This document shows, piece after piece, positions 824 to 52,074 of a stretch of DNA of 64,000 nt. The position numbers and the translations under genes were made by a program. The DNA lies in NCBI GenBank assembly GCA_041576165.1, contig JBFGLM010000015.1, forward strand, positions 1-64,000, written 5' to 3'. A model generated the notes under the pieces. The model was given only the letters and a program-made list of their open reading frames with translations. It did not search any database and had not been told where the DNA came from. Position 1 is the first letter of the stretch; every line of letters starts with the position of its first letter. This stretch comes from Acidimicrobiia bacterium (GTDB lineage: Bacteria; Actinomycetota; Acidimicrobiia; Spongiisociales; Spongiisociaceae).

Positions 824-1798
824 TCAGTCGAGTTCGGTTCGGATTGTGTCGACGATGCGATCAACCGACGGGATCGCCAGATCTTCCAGCGTCTCGGCCG
901 CCGGCAGAGGTATATGGGGCGTGGTGATTCGCCGGATCGGCGCGTCGAGATCCCAAAAACCTTCCGCGGCCACCAGAGACGCCACCTCTGCGCCCCATCC
1001 GCACAGTTGCGGGTTCTCCTCCACCGTGAACAGGCGACCGGTCTTGGCCACCGAACTCAAGACGGTCTGGGTGTCGAGGGGGACCAGTGTTCGCACGTCG
1101 ACCACCTCTACCGAGATTCCCTCACCGGCCAATCGGTCGGCCGCTTCGAGCGCCCGCGGCACCATGAGGGCAAGGGCCACGACCGTCGCATCGCTCCCCT
1201 CTCGACGCACCGTCGCAGTGCCGAGGTGCTCGACGTGCTCGCCGTCTGGCACGTTGCCTTTCGTCGCAAACAGTGATTTGTGCTCGAAAAACACCACCGG
1301 ATCGGGATCCCGAACGGCGGCCGCCATCAGCCCGACCACATCGGCCGGAGTGGAGGGTGCGACGACCTTGAGACCGGGGATCATCATCGTCCAGTTCTCC
1401 ACGCTTTGGCTGTGTTGCGCGCCAAACCGGGAGCCTCCCCCATTGGCCGTTCGGACGACGACCGGCACGCTCACCTGCCCATCCGTCATGTAACGAGCCT
1501 TGGCCATCTGATTGGCCACGATGTCGAAGCAAACCGCCAGGAAGTCGGAGAACATGATCTCGGCAATCACCGGGATGCCGGTCATGGCCGCGCCCATCGC
1601 AGCTCCCAGGATGGCCTGCTCGGAGATCGGCGTATCCCGCACCCGCTCCGGTCCGAACTCGTCCAAGAGCCCGACCGTGGTTTTGAACACGCCGCCGGCC
1701 GCAGCGATGTCTTCGCCCAGCATCACGAGGGCCGGGTCGCGTCGCATTTCCTGGGCAATTCCGGCGGCAACCGCTTCGCGGTAGGTCAGTTCCGCCAC
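824..1798 (-). CDS. 2-oxoacid/acetoin dehydrogenase E1 beta subunit
   Basis: GEDI..GGVF, DTPISE, AQHSQ and DPVVFFEHK motifs. GTG start chosen after GGAGG. Confidence 0.93.
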   Translation of the reverse strand: MAELTYREAVAAGIAQEMRRDPALVMLGEDIAAAGGVFKTTVGLLDEFGPERVRDTPISEQAILGAAMGAAMTGIPVIAEIMFSDFLAVCFDIVANQMAKARYMTDGQVSVPVVVRTANGGGSRFGAQHSQSVENWTMMIPGLKVVAPSTPADVVGLMAAAVRDPDPVVFFEHKSLFATKGNVPDGEHVEHLGTATVRREGSDATVVALALMVPRALEAADRLAGEGISVEVVDVRTLVPLDTQTVLSSVAKTGRLFTVEENPQLCGWGAEVASLVAAEGFWDLDAPIRRITTPHIPLPAAETLEDLAIPSVDRIVDTIRTELD

Positions 1799-2865
1799 GC
1801 CCACCCTCCGTCTGCGTAGACCTCCGTCAACAGCGATCCGGGGCGTGGCGGGGCGGCCGCTTTGGCTTCTTCAGTCGCCCGATCTACCGCCGCCGCAACC
1901 TCGCGATCAATCCCGGCCAGTTCCGCTTCACTCACCCCCAGCCGCAACAACCGGCGGTGGTAAAGCGGAATCGGATCCCGCTCCAACCACGCCTCGACTT
2001 CCTCTTGCGGGCGGTACGTCCCCGGGTCTGCTCGGGAATGACCACCGTGCCGATAGGTGGTCGCTTCGATCAGCGCCGGGCCCCCTCCCTCGCGGGCCCG
2101 CGCCAGCGCCGCCCGAGCAACCAGATAAACCGCGTCGGCATCGTTACCGTCGACGACGATGTTCTCCAGCCCATACGCACACGCCCGGTCGGCCGCCGGG
2201 TGCGGCACCGCAGTGATGTAATCGATCGGGGTGTATTCCATATAGAGGTTGTTTTCGCAAACGAATACAACTGGCAGGTTCCACACAACGGCCATATTGA
2301 GCGCCTCGTGAAAGGCGCCGATATTGGTGGTGCCGTCGCCGAAGAAGCACACCGTCACCTGATCAGTGCCGCGCATCTGCGCTGACCAGGCAGTGCCGTT
2401 GGCGATGCACAGGTGGGCTCCGATGATGGCGTATGAGCCCATCATGTTGCGCTCGGCGTGGGTGAGGTGCATAGACCCACCCTTGCCGCCCAGGATTCCG
2501 GTCTCACGCCCCAGCAGCTCGGCCATAACCGCCGTCATCGCCGCGCCCTTGGCGAGCGTGTGGGCGTGGCCCCGATAGGTCGCGAACACGTAGTCGTCGG
2601 GTCGCATAGCTGCGGCGAACCCGGCTGCGACCGCCTCCATGCCCAGCGAGAGGTGGCTGGTGCCCTTGACCAGGTTCTGCATGAACAAGTCGTACGCGCG
2701 TTTCTCGAACTGGCGCAGTTCTTGGAGCAGCCGGTACATGCGCCGGCGCGCATCGAGGTCGATGTCCGCCTCGTCCAGGCTTGCATCAGGCGGAGGGGGC
2801 ATGCGCGGCGCGCGAGTCGAATAGTCGTAGGCCTCTTCGCCGGCCGGCGGAGCGTCAATACTCAT
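1786..2865 (-). CDS. 2-oxoacid/acetoin dehydrogenase E1 alpha subunit (ThDP)
   Basis: GKGGSMH, ThDP motif GDG...CENN and YRHGGHSRADP. Overlaps the beta gene. Confidence 0.93.
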   Translation of the reverse strand: MSIDAPPAGEEAYDYSTRAPRMPPPPDASLDEADIDLDARRRMYRLLQELRQFEKRAYDLFMQNLVKGTSHLSLGMEAVAAGFAAAMRPDDYVFATYRGHAHTLAKGAAMTAVMAELLGRETGILGGKGGSMHLTHAERNMMGSYAIIGAHLCIANGTAWSAQMRGTDQVTVCFFGDGTTNIGAFHEALNMAVVWNLPVVFVCENNLYMEYTPIDYITAVPHPAADRACAYGLENIVVDGNDADAVYLVARAALARAREGGGPALIEATTYRHGGHSRADPGTYRPQEEVEAWLERDPIPLYHRRLLRLGVSEAELAGIDREVAAAVDRATEEAKAAAPPRPGSLLTEVYADGGWAWRN

Positions 2866-4108
2866 TCGCCACCATCAACTCTTCGCACGGGAACAATGTG
2901 GTCACCTGGGGGCCGTCGGCGGTGACCACCATCATTTCCTCGATCCGTGCGGCCGACCGACCGTCCTTGGCGGGCGCGTAGGTCTCCAGGGCGAAATACA
3001 TGCCCTCTTTGATTTCGATCGGGTCGTCCAGTGAGTTCAACCGGCTGATGATCGGCCGTTCGTGCAACCCCGCTCCCACCCCGTGTCCGAACTGCAGCCC
3101 GAAGGCATCCATCTCGTCGACAAAGCCGAACTCTTCCGCTCGCGGCCACACTTTGGCGATCATGTCCGTGGTGTTGCCCGGCCGGACCAGCTCGATGGCG
3201 GCGTCCATCCAATCTCGGGCCTGTTTGAAGGCATCCCGTTGGGCCGGGGTAGCCCGGCCGACCACAAACGTTCGGTAGTAACAAGTGCGGTAGCCGTTGA
3301 AGGCGTGGATGATGTCGAAGTACGCCTGATCGCCTGGCCGGATGATCCGGTCCGAAAAGACGTGCGGGTGGGGCGAGCAGCGCTCTCCTGCGATCGAGTT
3401 TATGGCTTCCACGAACTCTGAACCCATCTCGAAGAGACGGGCGTGCGCATGGCCGACCACGTCCGACTCCCGCACGCCGGGCTTCAACATCTCGAAGATG
3501 TCCTGGTAGACGCCGTCGACCATGGCAGACGCTTGGGTCAGCAGCATGAGTTCGTCTTCGTTCTTGATCTCGCGGGCATGCATCATCGCCTGTTGCCCGT
3601 CGACGACGGTCAGGCCCTCTTTCTGCAGCGCCAGGAACACCGACGTCTCGGCCATATCCACGCCCAGCGGCTCGCCGGCCACCCCGGCGTCACGCATCGC
3701 CGCTGCAATCTCCTGGGCGGCCCGCTGGTGCAACCCCGCTTCAGGACCGATCGCACCCTGCAATCCGGTGTTGCCTCCGATCGAATTCTCCTCGTTGTAG
3801 AGGTCAGGCAGTTGAAGCCGGTGCGCTTTCGCCGCCGACCCAAAGTCCCATATCTTCGGCGGATGGTCCCGGGTGATGAGCGCCCAGCGTTCACCCTTGT
3901 TGAACGCCCAATAGCCGATCGCCGTCGACGTTGTGTAGCGGATGTTCGAGGTCTCGAACAATAGGAGCGCGCCCAGGCCGAACGCCTCCATCTGGGCCCG
4001 CACCCGCGCATCACGGTGCGCCCGCATCCGCGGGTAGTCGACGCGATCTTCCCAGTCGACGCTCATGACACCGGGAGATGGCGTGGTCGCTACCGGAAAC
4101 TCGCTCAT
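2855..4108 (-). CDS. M24 (Xaa-Pro peptidase/creatinase fold) hydrolase
   Basis: NIRY N-domain, GHGVG..HERP, ALET and RIEE motifs. RBS GAGGAGG. Confidence 0.88.
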   Translation of the reverse strand: MSEFPVATTPSPGVMSVDWEDRVDYPRMRAHRDARVRAQMEAFGLGALLLFETSNIRYTTSTAIGYWAFNKGERWALITRDHPPKIWDFGSAAKAHRLQLPDLYNEENSIGGNTGLQGAIGPEAGLHQRAAQEIAAAMRDAGVAGEPLGVDMAETSVFLALQKEGLTVVDGQQAMMHAREIKNEDELMLLTQASAMVDGVYQDIFEMLKPGVRESDVVGHAHARLFEMGSEFVEAINSIAGERCSPHPHVFSDRIIRPGDQAYFDIIHAFNGYRTCYYRTFVVGRATPAQRDAFKQARDWMDAAIELVRPGNTTDMIAKVWPRAEEFGFVDEMDAFGLQFGHGVGAGLHERPIISRLNSLDDPIEIKEGMYFALETYAPAKDGRSAARIEEMMVVTADGPQVTTLFPCEELMVANEY

Positions 4109-4171
4109 GGTGCCTCCTCACCTCGGCCGGATGGTTCGACCAACGGCAGATCGATGCCCGGCCATCCAGGC

Positions 4172-4185
4172 CGCAATCGATTGGC
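4172..4185. promoter_or_regulatory. LacI-type operator site 1 (CGCAATCGATTGGC)
   Basis: Matches the recurring palindrome and lies upstream of the M24-E1 operon. Confidence 0.6.
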
Positions 4186-4313
4186 GCCCGTTTGACGGTC
4201 GATCGACGGCCAGCCGCTCCGATCTTTCCAGCGGCCCCATGGGGTGTCAAGCACGGTGCTCCACCCTCCTCAATATGGGAGCCAGGTTGAAAAATGCCGT
4301 CGACCGGTCCACA

Positions 4314-4329
4314 CTACAATCGTTTGCAG
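4314..4329. promoter_or_regulatory. LacI-type operator site 2 (CTACAATCGTTTGCAG)
   Basis: Identical 16-mer at 9873 and, inverted, at 49378. Follows a possible promoter TTGAAA(4287)-17-CACACT. Confidence 0.85.
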
Positions 4330-4428
4330 AGCAGCCGTCGCGCTGGCCCGCCCGCGGGACGCGCAGGGGAGGATTGACCCTCGCTTGTGCCGCGCCGGGT
4401 CCGACGCCGCTGTTTCAAAGGAGGCGAC

Positions 4429-5361
4429 GTGGCTGGAAGCGAGTTTGCCCATCGGGTCGGATGGATCGGCACCGGCAGAATGGGTTATGCGCTCGCAACC
4501 CGTCTGCTGCGCGCAGGGGTTGATCTGGCCGTCTACAACCGGACCAGGGCGAAGGCCGAGCCGCTGGCCGAACTCGGCGCCAAGGTTGTCGATGCTCCCC
4601 TGGATCTGGCCGACCGGGACATCGTCTTCACCATGGTGGCCGGCCCAGCGGACGTGCTCGAGGTGGCTCTCGGTGAGAATGGTGTCCTGTCCGCCGAGCA
4701 GCGCCCGTCGATACTGGTCGATGCCACCACCATCGACCCCGAGACATCGTCCTATCTCAGCGATCGCGCCGGCGAGCTGGGCACAGCGGTGCTGGCTGCC
4801 CCGGTGAGCGGAAATCCGAAAGTGGTGACCAGCGGGCGTTTGACGGTCGTGGCATCGGGTCCTCGCGAGGCGTACGAGAGTGCTCTCCCCTACCTGGAAC
4901 AGTTCGGACGCAAAGTCACCTACGTCGGCAGTGCGGATGAGGCCCGTCTGGTCAAGATCTGCCACAACCTGATGCTGGGGATCGTGGCACAGACAATGGC
5001 CGAGACCTCCGTGCTGGTCGAGGCGGCCGGTGTCAAACGCAGTGCGTACCTCGAGTTCCTCAATGACAGCGTCATGGGCTCGACGTTCACGAGGTACAAG
5101 ACCCCCGCCTACGTGAATCTCGACTACACACCGACTTTCACGTGGCACCTGCTCCGCAAGGACTTCGAACTGGGCTTGGACGCCGGCCGCTCCCTCAACG
5201 TCCCGTTGCCCGTTTCCAGTCAGGTTCATCAAATGATCATGGAAGGGATCGGGCGGGGTTTCGCGGAACAGGACTTTGCTGCTCTGCTCAGCAAGCATGC
5301 CGAAGACTCCGGGCTCAGCATCGAGCCGGAAGACGTCCCGGTCTCCGACGGACTCGACTGA
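4429..5361 (+). CDS. NAD(P)-dependent oxidoreductase, 3-hydroxyisobutyrate dehydrogenase family
   Basis: GWIGTGRMG Rossmann motif, APVSG and KICHN. GTG start after AAGGAGG. Confidence 0.9.
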   Translation: MAGSEFAHRVGWIGTGRMGYALATRLLRAGVDLAVYNRTRAKAEPLAELGAKVVDAPLDLADRDIVFTMVAGPADVLEVALGENGVLSAEQRPSILVDATTIDPETSSYLSDRAGELGTAVLAAPVSGNPKVVTSGRLTVVASGPREAYESALPYLEQFGRKVTYVGSADEARLVKICHNLMLGIVAQTMAETSVLVEAAGVKRSAYLEFLNDSVMGSTFTRYKTPAYVNLDYTPTFTWHLLRKDFELGLDAGRSLNVPLPVSSQVHQMIMEGIGRGFAEQDFAALLSKHAEDSGLSIEPEDVPVSDGLD

Positions 5362-5408
5362 TCACGTCACGCGACCGGCGTGCCCAACGCAACTGGAGGA
5401 ACGATTCA

Positions 5409-6866
5409 ATGAGTCTGCTGGCCGATCTCATCAAACAGGGTCACACGCACCTCACCATCGGCGGCCAGTGGCGTGAGTCGAGCGATGGCGCGACCATCGA
5501 AGTGCTCGATCCTGCTACGGCCGAACCGCTCGCCGAGGTCTCCAGCGGTAGCGAGGACGACGCTCGGGCGGCGGTGGATGCCGCAGCCGAGGCAGCGCCG
5601 GCCTGGGCGGCCACCCCGCCCCGCGACAGGAGCGAGATTCTGCGCCGGGCCTTCGAGATGATGTCAGCCCGGAGCGACGAATTCGCGGAGCTGATCGTTC
5701 AGGAGATGGGTAAAGCACTGCCGGAAGCCAAGGGCGAGGCCGCATACGCAGCCGAGTTCTTCCGGTGGTACTCGGGCGAGGCGGTCCGCAACATGGGAGG
5801 GATCCTGCGGGCGCCGGCGGGTGACAAGCAGATCATCTCCATCCATCAGCCCGTCGGCGTGTCGCTTCTGATCACACCATGGAATTTCCCGGCGGCCATG
5901 GCCACTCGCAAAATCGGCCCAGCCATCGCCGCCGGGTGCACGATGATCCTCAAGCCTGCGTCAGACACACCACTCACGGCGCTGGCGGTAGCGGAGCTGT
6001 TGGCCGAGGCGGGTCTCCCGCAGGGTGTCCTGAACGTGCTTCCCTCCAACCGTTCTTCGAAGGTCGTACCGATCATCCTTGCCGACGATCGGGTCCGGAT
6101 GGTCTCGTTCACCGGCTCAACCGAGGTCGGCCGGACGATCCTCGCAGAAGCCGCCAAAACGGTGGTCAACACGTCGATGGAGCTGGGCGGGAATGCGCCG
6201 TTCGTAGTGTTCGAAGACGCCGACATGGGAGCAGCCGTGGAAGGCGCCATGGTGGCGAAGATGCGGAACGGAGGTCAATCCTGCATCGCCGCCAATCGCT
6301 TCATCGTCCACGAAGCGGTGGCGGAGGAGTTCTCACGCCAGTTCACCGCAGCGATGGGCGCTCTCAAAGTGGGGCCGGGCCTCGAGGTCGGCGTCGAGCT
6401 GGGGCCCCTGATCAACCGGAGCGCCCAGAACGACATGTCCGAATCCGTCGAAATGGCGATCGGAGCCGGCGCCACCATTGCCACCGGAGGCGCGGCCCCC
6501 GATGCGCCTGGTTTCTTCTTCCAGCCGACAGTTCTGACCGGCGTCGGACCCGATGACCCGGTCCTCGACCGAGAGATCTTCGGTCCGATTGCACCCATCG
6601 TGACCTTCACCACTGAGGCCGAGGCGATTGCGGTCGCCAACGACACGATTCATGGGCTGGCCGGCTACGTCTACTCGCGTGATCTGGCGCGAGCGATGCG
6701 GGTTTCTGAGGCAATCGAGGCCGGCATGGTGGGCGTGAACCGGGGGCTGTTTTCCGATCCGGCGGCGCCGTTTGGCGGCGTCAAGCAATCCGGCATCGGG
6801 CGCGAGGGTTCGCGCGAAGGCATGATGGAATTCTTGGAGACGAAATACATCGCAGCCGGTTGGTAG
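5409..6866 (+). CDS. gabD: NAD(P)-dependent succinate-semialdehyde dehydrogenase
   Basis: ITPWNFP, FTGST, MELGGNAP, NGGQSCIA, EIFGP and PFGGVKQSGIGREG motifs. Confidence 0.88.
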   Translation: MSLLADLIKQGHTHLTIGGQWRESSDGATIEVLDPATAEPLAEVSSGSEDDARAAVDAAAEAAPAWAATPPRDRSEILRRAFEMMSARSDEFAELIVQEMGKALPEAKGEAAYAAEFFRWYSGEAVRNMGGILRAPAGDKQIISIHQPVGVSLLITPWNFPAAMATRKIGPAIAAGCTMILKPASDTPLTALAVAELLAEAGLPQGVLNVLPSNRSSKVVPIILADDRVRMVSFTGSTEVGRTILAEAAKTVVNTSMELGGNAPFVVFEDADMGAAVEGAMVAKMRNGGQSCIAANRFIVHEAVAEEFSRQFTAAMGALKVGPGLEVGVELGPLINRSAQNDMSESVEMAIGAGATIATGGAAPDAPGFFFQPTVLTGVGPDDPVLDREIFGPIAPIVTFTTEAEAIAVANDTIHGLAGYVYSRDLARAMRVSEAIEAGMVGVNRGLFSDPAAPFGGVKQSGIGREGSREGMMEFLETKYIAAGW

Positions 6867-7017
6867 CGAGAAGCCTGAGGGGTCAGCGGATAGGCCACTA
6901 TCTCGTCGGATGTGTGACCGATTGCTGCGCCACGACTGACAAAGCCTGCGTCACTGGAGCGTTACTGCGACGAACGCATGTCCAGTCGGATCGTGCCCCT
7001 GCCGATCCGCTGACCCC

Positions 7018-7509
7018 CTACGCCCCGGGTTGACGCACCCAGCGGACTTCCAGATTCACACCCGCATCGTTTATCAGATTGAAAACAGGGCAGCGTGCCT
7101 CCGTTTCGGCCACGACCTCGACCAGCCGCGCCTCGGTCTCGCTGGTTGTGACGGTCGCCTCCACCCGTACCGTTCGAAAATGCTGGGTCACCCCGCGTAC
7201 ACCCAACCGGCCGCGGATGTCGATGGTGAATTCGGCCTCGAATTCGATCTGCTCGTAACCGAACCCCATCTCGGCCGCAGTGCGGTGGAAGGTGACCGAC
7301 TCGCAGCCGCATAAGGCACCGAGCACCGCCTGCAGCGGCGAGGGGCCCTCTCCGGTACCTCCGTGGGCAACCGGTTCGTCGGTTGCGAAGTAGCCGTAGT
7401 CACCAAAGTCGATGTCGGTCATCATGCCGCCGTGGTTGACCGCCGTCACCATCTTCCGCCGAACAACCGGTTCGCTCACATCGAACGCGCTCTTCACCTC
7501 AGTAGCCAT
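7018..7509 (-). CDS. OsmC/Ohr-family protein
   Basis: DEP..HGGTGEGPSPL, ALCGC and RCPV. Start at MATEVK. Confidence 0.85.
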   Translation of the reverse strand: MATEVKSAFDVSEPVVRRKMVTAVNHGGMMTDIDFGDYGYFATDEPVAHGGTGEGPSPLQAVLGALCGCESVTFHRTAAEMGFGYEQIEFEAEFTIDIRGRLGVRGVTQHFRTVRVEATVTTSETEARLVEVVAETEARCPVFNLINDAGVNLEVRWVRQPGA

Positions 7510-7604
7510 CTCATCCTCACCGATCTCGGGTGGCGCTCTCTCAGCCCGGCTCATCGTATGGGCGCCACTGACGCTCAGCAAAAGTTTGCAGCTCGCGAGA
7601 AGAG

Positions 7605-8783: not shown

Positions 8784-8791
8784 GTGTGCGC

Positions 8792-9820: not shown

Positions 9821-9872
9821 GTCGGCGGCCCTCCTCCCGGTTCTCCTCCCGATGGTCCAGCCGCCTACCAGA

Positions 9873-9888
9873 CTACAATCGTTTGCAG
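9873..9888. promoter_or_regulatory. LacI-type operator site 3 (CTACAATCGTTTGCAG), between lacI and the divergent operon
   Basis: Lies in the 98-bp divergent gap at the LacI gene, the usual autoregulatory position. Confidence 0.88.
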
Positions 9889-9918
9889 GCGCACCGTCGA
9901 TCCGCCCGGGGAGAAGAG

Positions 9919-10509: not shown

Positions 10510-10555
10510 CCGGCACAGACAAGGGTTCTGACCCGAGGCACAGAGGGAGGTTGTA

Positions 10556-11716: not shown

Positions 11717-11735
11717 CTGGCATGCGTAGGCTGGC

Positions 11736-12512: not shown

Positions 12513-12530
12513 CCAGGTGCGGTCACCGGC

Positions 12531-13511: not shown

Positions 13512-13527
13512 CACTACTCCTTGCTCC

Positions 13528-14603: not shown

Positions 14604-14639
14604 CCCTCTTCCTCCTTGAATCGCCCCGGCTGGCGGCTT

Positions 14640-14653: not shown

Positions 14654-14670
14654 AGGCTACGCTAGCCGAC

Positions 14671-15831: not shown

Positions 15832-15859
15832 TCCCAGGCCCCGCTCCATTTTCCAGCTG

Positions 15860-38834: not shown

Positions 38835-38848
38835 TGCAACCGATTGCA
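38835..38848. promoter_or_regulatory. LacI-type operator site 6 (TGCAACCGATTGCA)
   Basis: Directly upstream of the 7-gene operon carrying the AhpD selenoprotein. Minus-strand TTGACA at 38858-38853. Confidence 0.85.
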
Positions 38849-39537: not shown

Positions 39538-39634
39538 GCTCCACTCACCTCCAACGGATCTTGACACCTTCCGGCAGTATTAACGACCGAGCCATCCTCT
39601 TAGGATCGACGTTCATGCCCATCGAAGGATTGAC

Positions 39635-42272: not shown

Positions 42273-42318
42273 AAGCGCAGGTGGCGGAGGGTACCGTTCA
42301 GCTACGCAATCGTTTGCG
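42269..42318 (+). promoter_or_regulatory. Sigma70 promoter plus LacI-type operator site 7 (CGCAATCGTTTGCG, 42305-42318)
   Basis: TTGAAA(42269)-17-TACCGT(42292), with the operator near the expected +1 of the ABC operon. Confidence 0.82.
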
Positions 42319-44175: not shown

Positions 44176-44198
44176 ACCGGATGGGAGGAAGGACGATT

Positions 44199-45377
44199 AT
44201 GACGACAAGGGATCTTGCTCGACTCGGCATCACACGGCGGAGGTTCCTGCAGATGTCGGGACTCGCGGCCGGTGGCCTGCTCATCGGCGCGTGCGGAGGC
44301 GACGACGAGCCAGCCGCAACAACAGCAGCCGACGCCGCAGCTGAGACCACCGCGGCACCGGCCGCCACCGACGCACCGGCGGACACCGGTGACATGATGG
44401 CCCCGCCGCAGTCGGAGCTCGAGGTGGTGCGTTTTGACTTCAACACGCCGAACGTGAACCTGCAGGCTCCGTACTGGATCGGCATATCCAAGGGCTTCTT
44501 CGAGGAGGTGGGAATCGATCTGCGGCCCGAGAACATCACGGGTCTGGACGAATATCTGCCTCCCATGTTCGCCGGCGAGATCGACATCGCTCTCATGGAC
44601 GCGGTCATCGTGTTCCCGGCTGAGGACGCCTCGGTGCTCGACGGCAGTCCGAACGGCCTGAAATGGGTCGGGTGCGTCCTCGGTGCCCAGCCGATCATCA
44701 TGATCGCCAACCCTGGTGTCACCGCCGACAACCTCGCAGACAAAACGATCGGATGCGCCCGGGCGGGAAGCACCAATGAGGTCCTGGCCAAGTTCGTGCT
44801 CGGCGAATTGGGATACGACTGGCAGACCGACGTGAACTGCGTCAACCTGACCGGTGGCTCGAACGACTGGGTGACGGCCATGCTCTCCGGGCAGATCGAT
44901 GCCACCCTGGCCTTCCCGCGCCACATTGCGCTCGCGGAAGCAGAGGGCGGCAGCGCCATCTACAACCAGCCACGACTCGATCCTCAGGCAGGATTGGGCG
45001 TGCTCCAGTCGACGCTGGAGGAGTACCCGACCTTCGCCACCGCTTGGAACTACGCCTACATCAAGTCGCAGCAGTGGGTCAAGGACCCGGCCAACTGGGA
45101 GGAATCACGCGAGATCCTGGTGAACGAGTTCGGTCTCGATTATCCGGACAACACGTTCGCTGCGATGGACATTGATGCCGGAATCATGACGAGCGATCTC
45201 GGCTGGAGTCCCGACGACATGGATACGCTGATGGAGTTCTCCCAGGAGTTCGGTGGCTACCGTGCGGACCTGCCGTGGCGGGACTACGTCGATCTGACGC
45301 ATCTCCACGCCGCCCAGGAGGCGCTGGAATTGCCGCTCAACCCGGTGGACGTGAACACCGGCGTCACCAACCTCTGA
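44199..45377 (+). CDS. ABC substrate-binding lipoprotein (SsuA/THI5-like) with Tat signal
   Basis: TRRRFLQ twin-arginine motif, lipobox IGAC, Ala/Thr linker and KGFFEEVGID. RBS GGAGG. Confidence 0.9.
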   Translation: MTTRDLARLGITRRRFLQMSGLAAGGLLIGACGGDDEPAATTAADAAAETTAAPAATDAPADTGDMMAPPQSELEVVRFDFNTPNVNLQAPYWIGISKGFFEEVGIDLRPENITGLDEYLPPMFAGEIDIALMDAVIVFPAEDASVLDGSPNGLKWVGCVLGAQPIIMIANPGVTADNLADKTIGCARAGSTNEVLAKFVLGELGYDWQTDVNCVNLTGGSNDWVTAMLSGQIDATLAFPRHIALAEAEGGSAIYNQPRLDPQAGLGVLQSTLEEYPTFATAWNYAYIKSQQWVKDPANWEESREILVNEFGLDYPDNTFAAMDIDAGIMTSDLGWSPDDMDTLMEFSQEFGGYRADLPWRDYVDLTHLHAAQEALELPLNPVDVNTGVTNL

Positions 45378-45521: not shown

Positions 45522-46868
45522 TCATGCAAGGCCGAGGGGATATTCGGTCAAAAGCTCCGGGCCGGATTCGGTCACGACAATCTGCTGCTCCAGCTTGACT
45601 CCCTCTCCCCCCTCCCTCCGGCCGGCGAAGGCCTCGACGCTTACCACATTGCCCGCTTCGATCACGCCGTCAAAGCCGGTCTGGTCCCACAGTTCCCGGA
45701 TGTAGATCGACGGGTATTCATCGGCCATGCCAACGCCATGGGCCAGCACGGTGTAGCCGTTGTAATCGTCCGGCGAGGGGTAGGTCGCCTTTTCGGTGAT
45801 TTCCCGATAGGCGGCGCCAGGGACAAACAGCGGACTGTTGGCCTCGATCATCTCGTTCGCCCGGGCCCACAGGTCCGCCTGGGTGGGGGTCGCCTTGACG
45901 TCGCCGCACACCCAGGAGCGGCTCATGTCGACGCACATGCCGTAGGCGCTGATCATGTCCGTATCGAAAGCCAGGATCTCCCCCGCCTCGACCTGCTTGC
46001 TGCTGGCCTCCTGGTACCACGGATTGGTGCGCGGCCCCGAGCTCAGAAGCCGGGTTTCGATCCACTCTCCAAACCGCAGAAAGTTGGACTCCTGAAGGCG
46101 GGCCCACAACGCCACCTCGGTCACGCCCGGTTCGAAGATCGCCCGCATGTCGTCGATGGCGGCCTGGCAGGAATACACCGCACAGCGCATCGCCGTGATC
46201 TCCTCCGGGTGCTTGACAAGCCGGGCGTCTTCCATCAGCTGCATACCGCTGATCAAGTCCACGCCGAGCGCTTCGAGCGCCCTGATACCGTCCAGGCTGA
46301 GCATGTCAATGGCCAGTCGGCGCCCGCCGGAGCGGGAGACCTCGTCGATGGTGTCGACCAGCTCGTGAGCCCACCGGACGGCGATCTCGGGCCGCCGATC
46401 GCCTACATAGAACGGCCAGAAAGACGTCGCCGGGCGGATCTCGGCGACTGTCTCTGCATGGGCGGACAGAAACTCGCCATTGGAGTATTCGTACATGATC
46501 ACCGGCCCGTCGGCCGGGACCAGGGCGTAGCGCACAGCGTTGTGGGCCGTCCAGATCGACATGTTGGTGCTGTCGGTGGCGTAGCGAATGTTGACCGGGT
46601 CGTACAGCAACGCAGCGTCGCACTCGGCCGCCTGGAGCTGGGAGCGGACGCGCTCGAGCCGATAGCTGCGGATCGTGGGCAGGTCGGGCAAGGCGAGCCC
46701 GGCCGCCTGCCACTCGACCACAGTTTCGGGACGGGGTCCGATCACATGCATGTTGCGGTTGGTGTGCTCCAGCAGCCACGGCGGAGCGGGGCGGCCGCCC
46801 CGGATCTTGGGCTGATGCCGGCCGTGCACGCTGGGATCAACCACGGCTACAGCTGCAGCCACGCCCAC
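45522..46868 (-). CDS. dddP: DddP-like DMSP lyase (M24 fold)
   Basis: EW.AAGLALPDL, NIRYATDSTNM, GEWIETRLLSSGPRTNPWYQE, FDTD...CVDMSR, HGVGMADEYP and KLEQQ match DddP motifs as recalled. Confidence 0.8.
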   Translation of the reverse strand: MGVAAAVAVVDPSVHGRHQPKIRGGRPAPPWLLEHTNRNMHVIGPRPETVVEWQAAGLALPDLPTIRSYRLERVRSQLQAAECDAALLYDPVNIRYATDSTNMSIWTAHNAVRYALVPADGPVIMYEYSNGEFLSAHAETVAEIRPATSFWPFYVGDRRPEIAVRWAHELVDTIDEVSRSGGRRLAIDMLSLDGIRALEALGVDLISGMQLMEDARLVKHPEEITAMRCAVYSCQAAIDDMRAIFEPGVTEVALWARLQESNFLRFGEWIETRLLSSGPRTNPWYQEASSKQVEAGEILAFDTDMISAYGMCVDMSRSWVCGDVKATPTQADLWARANEMIEANSPLFVPGAAYREITEKATYPSPDDYNGYTVLAHGVGMADEYPSIYIRELWDQTGFDGVIEAGNVVSVEAFAGRREGGEGVKLEQQIVVTESGPELLTEYPLGLA

Positions 46869-46886
46869 CGCTCGGGCCGGGCATCC

Positions 46887-48461
46887 TCATACCTTCATCA
46901 CTTCGGATGGGTCGCGACCGAGGTCTTGCAGCATGATGATGGCGGCGTTGCGGCCGGGCGCACCGGTTATCGAGCCGCCGGGATGGGTCGTGCCGCCAGT
47001 TTGGTACAGACCGGCAATCGGCATCCGATGCTGGGCCCACCCGGGCACCGGACGCATCGGCCCCGTATGGGCGATCGTTCGATCCCCGCCGTGGAAGGCG
47101 CCGCGGATCATGTGCGGGTTCCAGGCTTCGATGTCGTCCGGCGACTTGACCATCCGACCGACGATCTGATCGGAGGTGAAGTTGGGCGCGAACTTCTGCA
47201 CCCGCTCGAGGAAGCGGTTGGTCACGACTTCTTTCTCAGTTTCCCACGCCCGACCCGCCGGCAGTTCGTAGGTCTGAGCGCTCAGCAGTTTCACCGTGTG
47301 GAGGTCATCCACCGACCGGCTCTGGTCGACCAGAGTGGGGGTCGCCACCAGGAGAAACGGTATGTCCTCGAAGAACACGCCGTCGGACATGTCCCGAATA
47401 GCCCGCCGGATCTGCTCGGGCCAACCGGCGATCCCGGCCGACACCGCCGTTTGGCCGCCCCCGGCCGTAGCGAAAACGGGCGGCTCTTTCGCGGCCAGAT
47501 ACGCCGCGAAGCCAGAGAGGCCAACGTCGTACGTGTCAACGCCGTACCGAAAGTCGTCGCCCCACGCCTCGCTCGGCGCCATGTCCACGAGGTGCTTGAT
47601 GTGCACGGTTGAGAGCACCGCATAATTGGCGAGGTACCGGTCGCCGCTGGTTGTCTCCACTCCGATGCATCGCCCGTTTTCGATGATGAGCCTGCTCACG
47701 GTCTGGTTGCACACGATCTCCGCCCCGCGCTCTTCCAGGAACTCGACCAGAGCGTCGACCAGCCGGCCCGAACCGCCCAGTGGTATCGACCAACTGTTCT
47801 GCTGGCGCCCGTAGATCAGCGAGTACGCCAGCACACCGGTACCGGGCCGGTCGAGCGCCACCAGGGTCTGGAAGGTCATCCACAGCATGAAGCTCTGGAC
47901 ATGACGGCTCTCGAATTCACGCATGATGACGTCGAACGCAGACATCATCCGCCGCCGTTGCCATGTCGAGCGACGGGGGTGATCTGCCAGCAGCTGATCG
48001 AGCGACGGGCCGTGACCGAGCGGCTGGAACCGGCCCTGCCCGAATAAATGCTTGACGGCCCCGTACTCCTCCAACATCTGTTCATAGGCCCGGGCGTCGT
48101 TGGCCGAAAAGCGAGCAAACTCGGCGGCGGTGCGCTCCACATCGAGCCACATGGTGAGGTGCTCGCCGTCGGGCATCGTGACGTGGCCGACCGGATCCGG
48201 GTCGACATACTCGAGGCCGTGTTTGGCAACCAGTCCGAGCTCGTCGTGGCGGATCAGCGGGTTCACCCGGATGAGCGTGTGCCCCGTCGAGCACGTGTCG
48301 ATCCCGAGGCCGGGAAGCAGCAGCTCCTCGGTGGCCGCCCCTCCCCCTGGGATGTCGCGGGCGTCCAGTATCACGCACGAGTAGCCCGCCTGGGCCAGGT
48401 ACGCGGCCGTGATCAGGCTGTTGTGACCGGCGCCGGCGATGACGATGTCAGCCGTAGTCAT
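46887..48461 (-). CDS. FAD-dependent oxidoreductase, phytoene-desaturase-like family
   Basis: GAGHNSL..AAYLA, GGSGRL and GLYQTGGTTHPGGSITGAPGRNAA motifs. Confidence 0.9.
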   Translation of the reverse strand: MTTADIVIAGAGHNSLITAAYLAQAGYSCVILDARDIPGGGAATEELLLPGLGIDTCSTGHTLIRVNPLIRHDELGLVAKHGLEYVDPDPVGHVTMPDGEHLTMWLDVERTAAEFARFSANDARAYEQMLEEYGAVKHLFGQGRFQPLGHGPSLDQLLADHPRRSTWQRRRMMSAFDVIMREFESRHVQSFMLWMTFQTLVALDRPGTGVLAYSLIYGRQQNSWSIPLGGSGRLVDALVEFLEERGAEIVCNQTVSRLIIENGRCIGVETTSGDRYLANYAVLSTVHIKHLVDMAPSEAWGDDFRYGVDTYDVGLSGFAAYLAAKEPPVFATAGGGQTAVSAGIAGWPEQIRRAIRDMSDGVFFEDIPFLLVATPTLVDQSRSVDDLHTVKLLSAQTYELPAGRAWETEKEVVTNRFLERVQKFAPNFTSDQIVGRMVKSPDDIEAWNPHMIRGAFHGGDRTIAHTGPMRPVPGWAQHRMPIAGLYQTGGTTHPGGSITGAPGRNAAIIMLQDLGRDPSEVMKV

Positions 48462-49349
48462 TCATCCTCCTCGGCTCAGAATCACGAGTACCGAGCCTCC
48501 GACGACCGCGAGCATGCCGAACAGCACCTGCCGGGTCGGGCGTTCGAATGTAGACCGACCGACCAGCGGAGCTGCGACGACCACGACCGGGGTCGATAGC
48601 TGGAACAGCGTCAGCGCAACGCTGATCTCGATGGCCTCGATCGCCTCCCACTGTGAGGCGATCGCAAGGCCGACAATGGTGCCGCTGGCCAGCACCCAGC
48701 GCAGAACCGATTTCACCGGACCCCCGAACCGGGGCCGCCAGCCGACCTGCACCACCACCCATCCGGCCACCGCGGCGCCCGCCAACCCCAGGGTCACCCC
48801 AAGCAGCGGAGCCGGGAGATCCTCCAGGCCCCGGCGGATCATCACCGGCGTGAAGGCCCAGATGGTCGCCACCAACAGAGCGTGGTACGGAACCCGGCTC
48901 GTGTTGGCAACCTGGCCGGTGGCCGCACCCTCCATGGCGATCAGCGCTACCCCGCCGCTCACGGCCAGCAGACCGATGAGGATGGCCAGCGTCAGCGGTT
49001 CGTCGAGCAGCAGCGCGGCGAGGATGCTCCCGACCAGCGGGCTGGCCGCGACTACCACCCCGGTGCGGGAAGCACCAATGCGTTGCTGACTCAGTCCCAG
49101 CAGCGTCCAGCCGCCCGTGAAGTGGAGGATGCCGGTAGCAACGAAGATCGCCGGCGCAAACCACCCGGCATCGCCCAAGAGCGAAATGTCCTCGAACGTC
49201 AGCCCCAGCGCGGTGGTCAACGCACCGGCGACGATCACGATTGCCAGCGTCGCCCGCGACGCGTCTATCCGGGCCGTCGCCTGACGGAAGAAAGCCTGGT
49301 GGAGGCCAAAGAAGACGCCGGCCAGTGCACCGAATACGACGCCGCTCAT
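48462..49349 (-). CDS. DMT/EamA family transporter
   Basis: About 10 TM segments; IGASRT and LLDEPL motifs. Confidence 0.87.
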   Translation of the reverse strand: MSGVVFGALAGVFFGLHQAFFRQATARIDASRATLAIVIVAGALTTALGLTFEDISLLGDAGWFAPAIFVATGILHFTGGWTLLGLSQQRIGASRTGVVVAASPLVGSILAALLLDEPLTLAILIGLLAVSGGVALIAMEGAATGQVANTSRVPYHALLVATIWAFTPVMIRRGLEDLPAPLLGVTLGLAGAAVAGWVVVQVGWRPRFGGPVKSVLRWVLASGTIVGLAIASQWEAIEAIEISVALTLFQLSTPVVVVAAPLVGRSTFERPTRQVLFGMLAVVGGSVLVILSRGG

Positions 49350-49377: not shown

Positions 49378-49393
49378 CTGCAAACGATTGTAG
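49378..49393. promoter_or_regulatory. LacI-type operator site 8 (CTGCAAACGATTGTAG)
   Basis: Exact reverse complement of sites 2 and 3. Upstream of DMT-FAD oxidoreductase-dddP. Confidence 0.88.
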
Positions 49394-49482: not shown

Positions 49483-49496
49483 GACAATCGATTGCG
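49483..49496. promoter_or_regulatory. LacI-type operator site 9 (GACAATCGATTGCG)
   Basis: Second site about 104 bp from site 8. Confidence 0.65.
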
Positions 49497-49584: not shown

Positions 49585-50634
49585 TCAGGTGGTGCCGTCG
49601 GTCAGTTGGGCCGGATCGAACGACTCCAGCAAGAGCGGCTCGTCAGGCTCACTCAGGCCGCCCGGGCCCGCAGTGTGGATCAGCGGCGCCGGTTGCCGGT
49701 TGAGTAGCAGGCGGAACACATCGGGCCGGTTGTAGTGGCCGGCCAGGTCATGGCGAAGTTTCATCCGGACGCCGACGTCGAAATCCATATCGGCGTACAG
49801 AATCAATTGCTCGTTGCCGACAGCAGGTCCGGCGACGACGCGGGTGTCCGGGGCGACGATGCATGAACCACCACCAACGTCAGCGCGTCCGAGGAACGCT
49901 TCGTCCTCCTCCCCCGACGGGATGATGCTGCGAATCCGGTCGTCGACAACGGCCGACGCACTGATCACCCAGGCCTTCGACATCTGGGCGAAGGCACGGG
50001 CCGCAACCAATGAGATCTCAGGCATCGGTAGGGCCGGGGTAGGAAAGTGGTTTGGCCAGGCCATGACGTGCACCCTGGTCGCCTCAGCGGTCAGCGCAAA
50101 GATGGCCAGAGGATTGGAGTTCTCGCCGCACATGAGACCAGAAATCGGCCCCCATGGTGTGGCAAACACTCCGAAGGTTTCAGGACCGCCCGGGCGATGC
50201 ACCAGCCGTTCCCCCACGGTGGGCACGAGCTTCTGGTGCTTGCCGATATACCCGTCGGTGGGACTGAGGAAGACCTGGGTGTTGTACATCGTGCCGAAGG
50301 TGCCGCTCAGCCGCTCGCAAATACCGATGACGACATGCGCGCCGGCCCGGCGGGCGGCGGCCGCCAGCGCGTCTATCTGGGGACCGGGAACTTCGACGGC
50401 GTTCTTGAACAGTTCTAGAGAGAGCCGGGTTGCCTCCCGACTGGTGCCGGGATGGAAGTGGAACCAGATCGGATGGGCCGGGATGAAGCCCTCGGGGAAG
50501 CCGATGATTTGCGCACCTTCAGCACCGGCTTGTTCGATCAGCCCAATCGCCTTGTCGACACTGGCATCGCGATCCAGGAAGACCGGCGCCGCTTGCACAG
50601 CAGCTCCGCGAACAATGGGCGACTCATCCCCCAT
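49585..50634 (-). CDS. Nitrilase / carbon-nitrogen hydrolase
   Basis: Catalytic triad in FPEG, HQKLVPT and MCGEN; GHYNRPDVF. Confidence 0.93.
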   Translation of the reverse strand: MGDESPIVRGAAVQAAPVFLDRDASVDKAIGLIEQAGAEGAQIIGFPEGFIPAHPIWFHFHPGTSREATRLSLELFKNAVEVPGPQIDALAAAARRAGAHVVIGICERLSGTFGTMYNTQVFLSPTDGYIGKHQKLVPTVGERLVHRPGGPETFGVFATPWGPISGLMCGENSNPLAIFALTAEATRVHVMAWPNHFPTPALPMPEISLVAARAFAQMSKAWVISASAVVDDRIRSIIPSGEEDEAFLGRADVGGGSCIVAPDTRVVAGPAVGNEQLILYADMDFDVGVRMKLRHDLAGHYNRPDVFRLLLNRQPAPLIHTAGPGGLSEPDEPLLLESFDPAQLTDGTT

Positions 50635-50682
50635 CGCGGCAACAGATCGGGAGGCGTGAACTCACGCCTCGGGCTCCCAGGT

Positions 50683-51054
50683 TCATATGTCGTCGGTGAT
50701 CCACACCGTCTCGGACGGCGCCGGCACCCACAGTTCATAGAAGGCGAACGGGGCGTCGTGCGGATTCTCGAACGAGTGCACCTCGCCCGCCGCCGCGGTG
50801 AGGACGTCGCCCGCTCCCACTTCGTACTGGTCTCCGTCGACGTGGAAAACGCCATTCCCCTCCGAGACGAACCAGATGTGGCGGGCGCCCACGTGATAGT
50901 GCGGCGCGGCTGTGTCGTATGGCTTGTACCGGATCAGATCCGCCCGCAGGTCGGTGAAGCCGAACATCTCCTCGGTCACGAGGTCAATGCGGTCTCGGCC
51001 ATCCCGGGTCGACCGGTGCCTGGGGAGGTCGTCGTATCGGATCACCCGTTGCAT
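50683..51054 (-). CDS. Cupin domain protein
   Basis: HYH...H and GEVHSFEN motifs. Confidence 0.85.
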   Translation of the reverse strand: MQRVIRYDDLPRHRSTRDGRDRIDLVTEEMFGFTDLRADLIRYKPYDTAAPHYHVGARHIWFVSEGNGVFHVDGDQYEVGAGDVLTAAAGEVHSFENPHDAPFAFYELWVPAPSETVWITDDI

Positions 51055-51085
51055 GCAGGCAACGTACTCCGCCACGTGCCAAGTC

Positions 51086-51099
51086 TGCAAACGATTGCG
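51086..51099. promoter_or_regulatory. LacI-type operator site 10 (TGCAAACGATTGCG)
   Basis: Between the cupin-nitrilase operon and the divergent pseudogene. Confidence 0.85.
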
Positions 51100-51107
51100 G
51101 GTGAGGC

Positions 51108-52074
51108 GTACACACCCATTGCATCCCCGAGGGGTTCGTGCCTGGCTGGAAGCGCACGGGAAAGCTCACCAGATCGGACTGGAGGACACACCCCGGCGAC
51201 AGGGAGCCGTGTTTGGGGACCGCCACACCGAGCCGATGCCGGCCGACGCCACCCCGCTGTAGCGCCGCCTGAGTGAGGTGGACCGCATGGGAATCGACGT
51301 ACAGGTCTTCGCGGGTTGGATCGACCCTCACCGGATGCGAAATCGAGGGAGCGGCAGCCGCCACCTACTCTCGAGCCCACAACGACACTTTGGCGTCCGA
51401 AGTGGCGGAGGCGCCTTCCGGGAGGCCGATGGCAATCGGCAACGTTCCGCTCCAGCATCCGGACCCGGCGGTAAGTGAGCTAGGCCGGTGTATGGACGAG
51501 CTCGGCATGAAGGGGGTCGAGACAGCCAGGTCGGTCCGCGGGCGGGCCCTCGACCAAGCAGATCTCGACCCATTCTGGGAAGCGGTCGCAGATCAAGGCA
51601 TTCATCCTTCTGCACCCCATGACCCGCTCCGCGGCGTCGACCTCGACCGCTATTTCATGTCGAACCTGGGCCGTCCGGCTGAGACGACCGTGGCCCTGGC
51701 CGGCCTGATCCTCTCCGGCGTCTTCGAGCGTCACCCATCGCTCCGGCTGTGCGCGGTGCCCGGCGGCGGCTTCGCTCCGTTTCAGACGGGTCGGCTCGAC
51801 AAATGCGCCACCGTCCGTCCATCGGGTCACATCACCCGCGCACCGTCCGAGGACTTGCGCGACCTGTTCGTGAACACGGTTGTGCACGACCCGATCGCGC
51901 TTTGACTACGTGATCCGCGTAGTTGGCTCGAAGCGTGTGCTGCTCGGTACCGACTACCCGTCCCCGATGGGCGATCAGGACCCAGTCGGTTTCATCCGCT
52001 CCCTTTCCTCCCTGAGCATCGAGGAGCAGGACGACATCCTCGGCAACAACGCCGCCCGGTTGTTCGAGTTGTGA
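51108..52074 (+). pseudogene. Degraded ACMSD-like amidohydrolase/decarboxylase
   Basis: Fragments in shifting frames: VHTHCIP, DRMGIDVQV, VPLQHP...IHP...GGGF and LLGTDYP...GNNAARLF. In-frame TAG at 51260, at least three frameshifts, and no start codon. Confidence 0.85.

Follow-up and report, generated by a model that had tools for sequence, protein, structure and literature searches.

According to the main text of a comparative survey, LacI-family regulators mostly recognize even palindromes with CG at the center, the distance from a site to the start downstream is 30-140 bp in more than 75% of cases, autoregulation applies to 72% of the regulators and 90% of the regulons are local (Ravcheev et al. 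2014, PMC4052901). The same text calls a LacI regulon 'global' when it comprises more than 15 genes, at least seven operons and several pathways; 96% of the pathway-assigned groups control carbohydrates, and a few (UriR, AdeR, HpxR) nucleosides. Here we analyze a LacI-family gene (8792-9820, minus strand) and ten operator-like palindromes in a 64,000-nucleotide stretch of DNA from an Acidimicrobiia bacterium, hereafter the window, which is the first 64 kb of contig C15 in a 5.1-Mb assembly (G000; 5,115,095 bases, 161 contigs, about 65% G+C, completeness 96.5%, contamination 7.5%). Other G-numbers denote relatives, L-numbers loci and C-numbers contigs.

Behind the ten sites stand 12 transcription units with about 35 genes, and about seven outlying sites occur on other contigs of the genome. 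To judge from sequence comparison, the LacI protein very probably represses the roughly 12 units in the window and some seven elsewhere by binding CTGCAATCGATTGCAG, until an inducer is present. It would bind as a dimer to this 16-bp even palindrome (core CAAWCGWTTG), would thereby repress its own gene together with the other units, and would be released from the operators by a small-molecule inducer. Binding, repression and the inducer are what we infer from the observations below.

Operator palindromes and the regulator gene

All ten palindromes of the original prediction, which had been made from the window alone, are present. With up to three mismatches, the pattern TGCAATCGWTTGCA matched at all ten positions (24 strand-matches in the window against 7.0 expected and 19 in the largest shuffle); with up to two mismatches it matched at seven of the ten (13 strand-matches against 0.63 expected, a number reached by 0 of 100 shuffles). 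The sites at 4172, 14640 and 49483 needed the third mismatch, and the three-mismatch scan added three positions within genes, at 2256, 7577 and 30993. As claimed, three sites share an identical 16-mer, CTACAATCGTTTGCAG, found at 4314-4329 and 9873-9888 and as its reverse complement at 49378-49393. The consensus of the ten sites, CTGCAATCGATTGCAG, has invariant CAA..CG..TT and thus carries the LacI-type operator signature of an even palindrome with central CG. The flanks of the sites have nothing in common outside the 16-mer.

Start codons were refined by Shine-Dalgarno-like sequences before the sites were scored as coding or non-coding. The sites at 14640, 38835 and 51086 fall within the longest possible open reading frames (ORFs) of their neighbors; better internal starts preceded by Shine-Dalgarno-like sequences are ATG 14603 (after AAGGAGG) and ATG 38801 (after GGGAGG), and also ATG 9919. 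With the refined starts, 0 of 14 bases is coding in each of the ten sites, and only 3,427 of the 64,000 window bases (5.4%) are non-coding. The claim that all ten sites are intergenic holds once this refinement is made. Site-to-start distances are about 20-160 bp, which fits the range given for LacI sites in the main text of PMC4052901. A three-mismatch palindrome at 7577-7590, AGCAAAAGTTTGCA, lies at the junction of the MFS and OsmC-like genes of the LacI operon, lacks the central CG and is probably due to chance.

The motif is concentrated in this region. The core CAAWCGWTTG has 26 copies in the 5,115,095 bases, eight of which lie at 4-52 kb of contig C15, a span of 48 kb for which about 0.24 copies are expected from the genome-wide counts, and any P value for this concentration would be optimistic because the region is delimited by the sites themselves. 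The looser pattern CAANCGNTTG has 80 copies genome-wide, 10 of them in the window region. These counts indicate that the motif is not evenly spread over the genome. A position weight matrix (PWM), built from the ten window sites and circular for those ten, gave 11 other matches of at least 17.2 bits in the genome, seven of them intergenic or at a gene start. Sites, placement and concentration are thereby established computationally. That the palindromes arose by chance, or are a dispersed repeat without regulatory function, is hardly credible: the motif is short and a few matches lie inside genes, but the shuffles, the non-coding placement of 10 out of 10 sites, the absence of any shared flank beyond the 16-mer and the conservation upstream of orthologous genes across families, described below, all speak against it.

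The regulator has 342 amino acids, is the first gene of a LacI-MFS-OsmC-like unit and was assigned from Pfam, structures and orthologues. Here and below, domain and function calls rest on Pfam and NCBIfam models with curated cut-offs. The LacI helix-turn-helix (HTH) domain PF00356 covers residues 6-52 (47.9 bits, cut-off 27) and is followed by a type-I periplasmic-binding-protein-like effector domain (PF13377, Peripla_BP_3, 117 bits; PF00532, Peripla_BP_1, 101 bits). The protein aligns over its full length with RbsR, CcpA, PurR and LacI structures, and since it has no extension past the type-I binding-protein fold, it would act as a dimer. Both the HTH (GVHxSTxSRALN) and the hinge (LARGL) are invariant across 10 orthologues. 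As predicted, one site, O3 (9874-9887), lies in the divergent gap between the LacI gene and a YciW-like gene, 54 bp from the LacI ATG at 9820 and 32 bp from ATG 9919. On the minus strand downstream of LacI, the unit continues with an MFS transporter (7605-8783; Pfam MFS_1) and an OsmC-like protein (7018-7608; Pfam OsmC), together 7018-8783.

Conservation of sites and regulator in relatives

Two comparative sets were used, one of 40 relatives and, separately, one of 301 genomes sampled class-wide. The LacI orthologue was found in 11 of the 40 relatives (including the unpublished G028) at 48-64% identity, the next best match being 37% identical, and in 24 of the 301 genomes (including the unpublished G284) at an E value of 1e-80 or better, all in one order; over both samples, identity is 48-69%. 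By family, 16 of 35 genomes in f4, 3 of 7 in f12, 2 of 3 in f6 and 2 of 16 in f2 carry it. A PWM match lies directly upstream of the orthologue at six loci, and at three more it precedes the first gene of the apparent operon (cupin-LacI in G032; EamA-FAD oxidoreductase-LacI-MFS in G002 and G008, FAD being flavin adenine dinucleotide).

In ten out of ten carrier genomes scanned with the exact core, the motif clusters around the orthologue. The share of exact-core matches on or near the LacI contig was 5 of 13 in G002, 4 of 16 in G008, 5 of 9 in G004, 7 of 19 in G035 and 3 of 5 in G032; for the second set the same count gave 13 of 15 in G216, 4 of 8 in G181, 5 of 8 in G312, 3 of 6 in G107 and 7 of 8 in G220, with 0-1 for reversed-pattern controls. 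The association across relatives supports the predicted link of this LacI protein to this motif.

The gene content of the relatives' loci is based on tblastn and Pfam matches, because a simple gene caller relying on third-position G+C (GC3) mis-called some genes there. A mirror island is present in G216, a member of another family, in which 16 sites in about 66 kb precede counterparts of most window units. The most constant member of the regulon is the beta-hydroxyacid dehydrogenase (HIBDH) gene, alone or with an aldehyde dehydrogenase (ALDH) gene. Its orthologue occurs in 13 of the 40 relatives, including all 11 carriers of the LacI orthologue, and is preceded by a site at 20-140 bp in 12 of the 13; the exception, G034, also lacks a LacI orthologue. 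The order LacI-MFS-(YciW-like)-OsmC recurs in G032, G008 and G004.

Further orthologues stand behind sites as follows: the LVIVD-repeat protein in G004, G032, G035, G216 and G220; FrsA-like hydrolase 1 in G004, G216 and G312; creatininase-cupin-GFO-FrsA2 in this order in G216 and G220, and without FrsA2 in G004 and G035; EamA-FAD oxidoreductase in G002 and G008; cupin-nitrilase in G216, with cupin 2 in G004 and G032; and Amidohydro_2 in G002, G008 and G035. In G216, a site precedes the orthologue of the NMT1-type importer (67-83% identity), and G004 has a similar importer. In G216, the divergent PrdB-like/FrsA1 arrangement with its site is also kept. Other orthologous units behind relatives' sites are HIBDH(-ALDH), M24-E1 alpha-E1 beta, YciW-like/OsmC-like and PrdB-like with a 99-amino-acid protein, and the relatives' sites also precede Liv- and SBP_bac_5-type importers and a molybdenum hydroxylase large subunit of about 750 amino acids. 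The unit at 32963-38801 was not found in the relatives examined, and the DddP-like gene (45522-46868) was not seen in the loci examined there. The comparison of synteny across Acidimicrobiia genomes therefore places orthologous units behind sites. Co-occurrence of the sites with the LacI orthologue and with orthologous targets is a computational observation, and from the clustering at the orthologue and the sites before orthologous operons, the regulon is well supported computationally.

The regulon is not, as had been supposed, confined to the window region. On other contigs of G000, PWM matches precede SBP_bac_5 ABC importers (two sites on C78, one on C28), a TRAP importer (C98), a Liv-type ABC importer adjoining an FAD oxidoreductase (C9), the molybdenum hydroxylase large subunit, followed by an F420-type LLM enzyme (C10), and a beta-CASP metallo-hydrolase/vWA unit (C19); the site on C19 may be due to chance. 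Another match, weaker at 16.3 bits (C36:31801), stands before a gene for a Liv-type binding protein, which adjoins a RidA-like gene. The molybdenum hydroxylase gene is at C10:108882-111179 in G000, and at L029:13823-16111 and G216:C4:90318-92633; no gene for an Fe-S or FAD subunit adjoins it in the loci seen.

Contig C78 also carries a second gene set (C78:250-17286, L001), 44-73% identical to window genes and comprising a zinc-dependent alcohol dehydrogenase (Zn-ADH), LVIVD, Amidohydro_2, the 99-amino-acid protein, a PrdB-like gene with TGA, an FrsA1-like gene and creatininase-cupin-GFO. This set may be a paralogous island or stem from a second organism in the bin.

Several observations weigh against control of these units by this LacI protein. 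A scan of 4000-15000 for sigma-70-like promoters found none that an operator could overlap. Four of the 11 outlying PWM matches fall within ORFs, and no enzyme behind any site reaches a curated equivalog cut-off in NCBIfam. The C78 set is without sites except the two at its SBP_bac_5 ABC importer; it was rejected as a second regulated copy for this reason, and belonging to one of these gene families does not by itself entail regulon membership. Counts of 12-mers with one mismatch were 251 against 82 in the control for carriers (12 genomes) and 297 against 160 for non-carriers (29 genomes), a moderate enrichment. Because these counts, over 41 genomes, separate carriers weakly, the comparison was based instead on motif clustering and on the presence of sites in front of orthologous genes. 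Furthermore, a site precedes the HIBDH orthologue of G012, a genome in which the best match to the LacI protein reaches only 34% identity, and LacI paralogues share the general shape of the motif.

The last two points would suit a real motif that is bound by another regulator, either one of the five other LacI proteins, as the genome holds six LacI-type HTH genes in all, or an unrelated factor. We consider this very unlikely, since most loci of the orthologue have a site at the gene or its operon, the clusters are centered on the orthologue in 10 of 10 genomes, and two of the other LacI genes of G000 have different palindromes upstream. The next LacI paralogue group, at about 35% identity (L021, L022, L024-L026, L028; G006, G020, G016, G018, G022, G024), has its own palindrome, CTGAAAACGGTTTCAG, with variants carrying ATCG or ACGA at the center, adjoining the gene, and constitutes a distinct regulon within this family of genomes.

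Genes behind the sites and their possible chemistry

Two operators, O1 (4172-4185, 64 bp upstream of the M24 gene) and O2 (4315-4328, about 100 bp upstream of the beta-hydroxyacid dehydrogenase start, GTG 4429), both sit between divergent units. On the minus strand (824-4108) these are an M24 enzyme with DddP/creatinase/prolidase likeness and E1 alpha and E1 beta, called from Pfam and NCBIfam; on the plus strand (4429-6866) they are the HIBDH-family enzyme and an SSADH-like aldehyde dehydrogenase with a probable start near 5442. From O3, the plus-strand unit 9919-12512 encodes a YciW/AhpD-like protein, an LVIVD-repeat protein and an S-adenosylmethionine methyltransferase. O4 (14640-14653) separates a PrdB/GrdB-like selenoprotein gene (13809-14603, ATG 14603, UGA at 14088-14090), which is followed by the 99-amino-acid protein and an aldo-keto reductase (12531-14603, minus), from FrsA-like hydrolase 1, of the Ayg1/DHPONH C-C hydrolase family (GTG 14671), with an EamA transporter (14671-16738, plus). 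O5 (26688-26701) lies 160 bp upstream of a creatininase-family hydrolase, which heads a unit with a cupin, a GFO/IDH/MocA oxidoreductase and FrsA-like hydrolase 2 (23211-26528, minus).

O6 (38835-38848) lies 34 bp upstream of FrsA-like hydrolase 3 (ATG 38801), the first gene of the minus-strand unit 32963-38801, which further contains an alpha/beta hydrolase (UilS-like), a cyclic amidohydrolase, an AhpD-like selenoprotein (UGA at 35196-35198), an F420-type LLM oxidoreductase and a LigB-type dioxygenase. The LigAB enzyme that had been proposed was found in part, i.e., the LigB-type subunit is present and LigA was not found. O7 (42305-42318) lies 41 bp upstream of the ATPase of an ABC importer, encoded with its permease and an NMT1/SsuA-like binding protein (44199-45377) at 42359-45377 (plus). 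Two sites, O8 (49379-49392, 30 bp) and the second, weaker O9 (49483-49496, 134 bp), are upstream of EamA transporter 2, which is encoded with an FAD oxidoreductase (amine-oxidase/CrtO-like) and the DddP-like M24 protein (45522-49349, minus). O10 (51086-51099) separates cupin 2, encoded with a nitrilase-superfamily C-N hydrolase (49585-51075, minus), from an Amidohydro_2 gene (51105-52100, plus). The latter, located by tblastn with the intact 338-amino-acid orthologue of G002, aligns only over three reading frames with stops, which points either to gene decay or to a misassembly of the metagenome-assembled genome (MAG).

Of the proposed 50-kb regulon of about 30 genes, the extent in genes stood, with about 35 in 12 units, while the span proved discontinuous. 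No site precedes three stretches, namely 16757-23192 (SpoU methylase, MFS_3, two-component system, DCC1-like, TetR), 26723-30542 (Zn-ADH, OsmC-like, rhodanese, DAHP synthase) and 38869-42272 (dienelactone hydrolase, OsmC-like, CoA-transferase, Amidohydro_2), and about two fifths of the genes within the span are not behind any site. Beyond the span, the window holds a fused MFS/spermidine-synthase protein (57634-59094; NF037959, 328 bits) and, after a small HTH_17 gene, Tad/Flp-type pilus genes (59137-63985; TadE/G-like, two T2SSF, T2SSE ATPase).

The M24-E1 operon has a wider distribution than the regulator. The M24 protein has 577 relatives in a collection of species-representative genomes, and the best 80 of these are all from Acidimicrobiia-type MAGs, with 81-89% identity and E1 alpha/beta following M24 in 64-69 of the 80 loci. 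The island in these genomes shares the M24-E1 alpha-E1 beta operon with the window and differs in its context: in most M24 loci the operon lies beside an XRE-cupin regulator, an SDR, another HIBDH, a bicupin, a CUT2 importer with its permease fused to an Amidohydro_1 domain, and an FAD oxidase that passes the L-2-hydroxyglutarate oxidase (LhgO) model (509 bits, cut-off 299), whereas in the window it stands behind LacI-type sites. Of 72 M24 loci, 14 have such a site in front of the M24 gene; their scores are at least 17.4, those of the others at most 12.4, and none falls between.

In G000, other parts of the island are on C29 and C36. A CUT2-type ABC permease fused in one frame to Amidohydro_1 (C29:49694-52138) is 73% identical to the 817-amino-acid form in L118, and an LhgO gene at 56162-57346 in the window (515 bits, cut-off 299) lies apart from the M24-E1 operon and has no LacI-type site. 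The window HIBDH was rejected as the island's HIBDH, to which it is 31% identical; the true orthologue of the latter is on C36. The sites at 14 of 72 M24 loci and the island parts elsewhere in G000 suggest that the LacI regulon took over one module of an older island. Many of the loci L051-L129 without a LacI-type site carry a conserved CTCCTAYCGATTYGCA about 76-86 bp upstream of the M24 gene, at a fixed distance, and this may be the site of the island's XRE-cupin regulator.

The lack of equivalog-level enzymes behind the sites bears out the view that the gene set is not recognizable as a characterized pathway. Only subfamily or domain models were passed, for E1 beta and for the F420-type LLM families TIGR03619 and TIGR03560. 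The nearest matches of FrsA-like hydrolase 1 are two kinds of C-C hydrolase, the Ayg1-type polyketide-shortening enzymes and 2,6-dihydroxy-pseudo-oxynicotine hydrolase; those of the cyclic amidohydrolase are dihydroorotase, allantoinase and hydantoinase. The molybdenum subunit is closest to the glyceraldehyde dehydrogenase alpha (540 bits) and CoxL-like (499 bits) models, both below cut-off. The core M24 enzyme (2855-4108) is closest to prolidases, with a full-length match also to two PDB 'Peptidase M24' entries, which we take to be DddP. A search of PDB sequences gave nothing for the NMT1-like binding protein and only phytoene desaturase for the FAD oxidoreductase.

The prediction of two selenoproteins was upheld firmly for one and less so for the other. 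In-frame TGA codons join coding-like ORFs at 14088-14090 (VPG-U-PMC) and at 35196-35198 (CEY-U-T), and G000 contains selA and selB (two loci each), selD and two tRNA-Sec genes. For the PrdB-like protein, 29 matches in 26 of 41 genomes each have one in-frame TGA, by which its reading as a selenoprotein is strongly supported. This protein of 265 amino acids does not reach the cut-offs of TIGR04483 (145.9 bits against 300) and TIGR01918 (48 against 65.45) and passes Pfam GRDB (40.9 against 22); no PrdA- or GrdE-like gene adjoins it in the window, the rest of the genome not having been searched for these. The failed cut-offs and the missing PrdA-like neighbor make it a probable PrdB/GrdB-type selenoenzyme outside the proline reductase equivalog.

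The AhpD-like candidate has the motif CEYU with the UGA at the second CxxC position, and TIGR01926 and PF02627 align past the UGA, although TIGR01926 is not passed (66.4 bits against 81.8). The relatives gave only three distant matches (24-31% identity), none with a stop; this UGA is not conserved in them. The putative selenoprotein is moderately supported. Folding for selenocysteine insertion sequences after the two UGAs gave a hairpin after the PrdB-like UGA, but neither sequence did better than its shuffles (z values of -0.33 and +0.37), which is not decisive in DNA of 65% GC. The selA-selB pairs are at C24:55512-58621 and C100:605-3619, the tRNA-Sec genes are on two contigs, and an in-frame TGA also occurs within selD (C1:171385-172317); selA-selB and tRNA-Sec may occur twice because the bin is mixed.

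Under the predicted control by LacI, the regulon would combine importers and exporters (NMT1-, SBP_bac_5- and Liv-type ABC, TRAP, MFS, EamA) with three groups of enzymes. The first would be ring- or bond-opening hydrolases (Ayg1/DHPONH-type C-C, creatininase-family, cyclic amidohydrolase, nitrilase-family, Amidohydro_2, M24) and the second oxidoreductases (molybdenum hydroxylase large subunit, FAD oxidoreductase, GFO, LLM, LigB). The third would form a funnel of beta-hydroxyacid dehydrogenase, SSADH-like aldehyde dehydrogenase and the E1 alpha/beta 2-oxoacid dehydrogenase component. Thiol/selenol redox proteins (the PrdB-like and AhpD-like selenoproteins, YciW-like, OsmC-like) would accompany them. 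As for the chemistry, which we infer from the families, compounds would be taken up, opened by hydrolysis at lactam, amidine, lactone or beta-diketone bonds, oxidized, and passed on via the hydroxyacid/semialdehyde pair and the 2-oxoacid E1. The families suggest small cyclic compounds with N or S as substrates of ring-opening hydrolysis and oxidation.

Whether all this is a single catabolic pathway, as first proposed, can be weighed on the gene content. The mix of families in the regulon (molybdenum hydroxylase, FAD amine-oxidase-like enzyme, DHPONH-type C-C hydrolase, nitrilase-family amidase, SSADH) presumably recalls a nicotine or pyridine-ring pathway, and one regulator with one motif, and a gene set that is kept as a block between families (G000, G216), would suit 30-35 genes acting in sequence on a single substrate. 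Against this, the sites precede importers of at least five classes as well as MFS and two EamA transporters, and the C-C hydrolases (three paralogues), M24 enzymes (two) and cupins (several) are multiple. The content of the regulon also varies among relatives, with the 32963-38801 unit and the DddP-like gene found only here, and the size is that of a 'global' regulon by the criteria in the main text of PMC4052901. We therefore find a linear pathway doubtful. The predicted co-regulation stands, while the multiple transporter classes and the many parallel hydrolases suggest branches, and the regulated catabolism probably has several of them.

The contrast with sugar use was weaker than claimed, although several hydrolase and oxidoreductase families fit N-heterocycle or S-compound chemistry. 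It is weaker because some members belong to polyol/sugar-acid families, namely GFO/IDH/MocA, the aldo-keto reductase, the beta-hydroxyacid dehydrogenase and the creatininase with its weak IolN likeness. An ordinary LacI regulon for a sugar, cyclitol or sugar acid, with enzymes that merely look exotic, is nevertheless unlikely. No site has a glycoside hydrolase, a sugar kinase, an isomerase or an aldolase behind it, the importers belong to the NMT1, peptide/opine and Liv types and not to CUT1/CUT2, and nitrilase-family enzyme, cyclic amidohydrolase, M24 and molybdenum hydroxylase do not suit a sugar route. What favors such a regulon is the prevalence of carbohydrate control among pathway-assigned LacI groups (96%, main text of PMC4052901), the closest NCBIfam regulator models (RbsR, CytR, GntR, UriR), the aldo-keto reductase, and the HIBDH-family enzyme, which is nearest to tartronate-semialdehyde and L-threonate dehydrogenases. 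Also in its favor are matches to inositol-type enzymes, all far below cut-offs (GFO/IDH/MocA to IolG, 112 bits; the neighboring Zn-ADH to IolM, 142; the creatininase-family protein to IolN, 45).

With respect to substrates, N-heterocycles or cyclic amides are a tentative candidate class, and it is possible, if speculative, that several unrelated substrates come under one regulator. Organosulfur compounds are rather unlikely; the hints for sulfur are the importer with SsuA/TauA likeness, the YciW/AhpD/OsmC proteins and, in relatives, a TauE exporter next to the HIBDH sites of G035 and a rhodanese-OsmC pair behind a site in G216, and no desulfonating enzyme was seen. Cyclitol or sugar-acid-like compounds are an improbable class. 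As a speculative model that we hold only loosely, the LacI protein might sense a non-sugar ligand in a catabolic network of a kind not yet described. C-C and lactam/amidine hydrolases might open N- or S-containing cyclic compounds, and the lone PrdB-like enzyme, with its 99-amino-acid partner and thiol-redox helpers, might cleave C-N or C-S bonds reductively outside a glycine or proline reductase complex. The products might then pass to HIBDH/SSADH and M24-E1.

Comparison with described systems

No published account of this regulon was found in open-access full text, including searches for LacI with creatininase and for LacI regulons of Acidimicrobiia. Acidimicrobiia are absent from the main text of PMC4052901. 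The literature on DddP in Acidimicrobiia is ecological, and LacI is not mentioned in the passages of 10.1101/2024.12.10.627767 that were covered; open-access literature on PrdB selenoproteins in Actinobacteria gave nothing relevant. What is new is a well-delimited regulog, kept across families, in an Acidimicrobiia order represented by MAGs alone among the records seen. Some 35 genes of unassigned function, including two candidate selenoproteins and part of a widespread orphan island, are joined as one predicted co-regulated set. This provides a handle on the substrate, as one soluble repressor and several binding proteins are open to ligand screening.

Two enzymes resemble described ones in part. 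The PrdB/GrdB likeness is seen in an alignment that spans the UGA at the catalytic Sec position (motif VPGUPMC) and in the Pfam GRDB match, whereas the protein is short, falls below the curated cut-offs and is encoded beside the 99-amino-acid protein and the aldo-keto reductase. The 45522-46868 protein matches the dimethylsulfoniopropionate (DMSP) lyase DddP model NF043017 over its whole length (E 5e-117). However, it scores 391.4 bits against a cut-off of 600, the core M24 enzyme scores only 96, and in relatives the 45522-46868 gene does not regularly belong to the regulon.

With regard to the regulator, LacI proteins can sense N-heterocycles, as is illustrated by UriR, AdeR and HpxR for nucleoside use, by CytR and by PurR with its nucleobase co-repressors in the main text of PMC4052901. 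The UriR and CytR models are among the closest to the regulator (178-180 bits), below their cut-offs of 436-550. In contrast to the regulons of nucleoside LacI regulators, no nucleoside hydrolase, phosphorylase, ribokinase or nucleoside transporter stands behind the sites here.

The closest described systems are the large LacI regulons PurR, FruR/Cra, CcpA, GapR and PckR (main text of PMC4052901). They share with this system the HTH and type-I fold, a 16-bp even palindrome with central CG, site distances mostly of 30-140 bp, a site at the regulator's own gene and more than 15 genes in at least seven operons. The 12 units and about 35 genes in the window, plus about seven outlying sites, give the size of a 'global' regulon in that text; several transporter classes and parallel hydrolases are present, and pathways are not assigned. 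The proposed mechanism is that of ordinary LacI repression, the regulator type is textbook and the regulon conforms structurally to the family throughout; the size of the regulon and its non-sugar content are unusual. The large regulons serve central carbon or purine metabolism, whereas the predicted targets here are peripheral hydrolases, oxidoreductases and transporters, and most of them are clustered around the regulator, as in a local regulon. The system would thus add a large non-sugar case to the LacI family.

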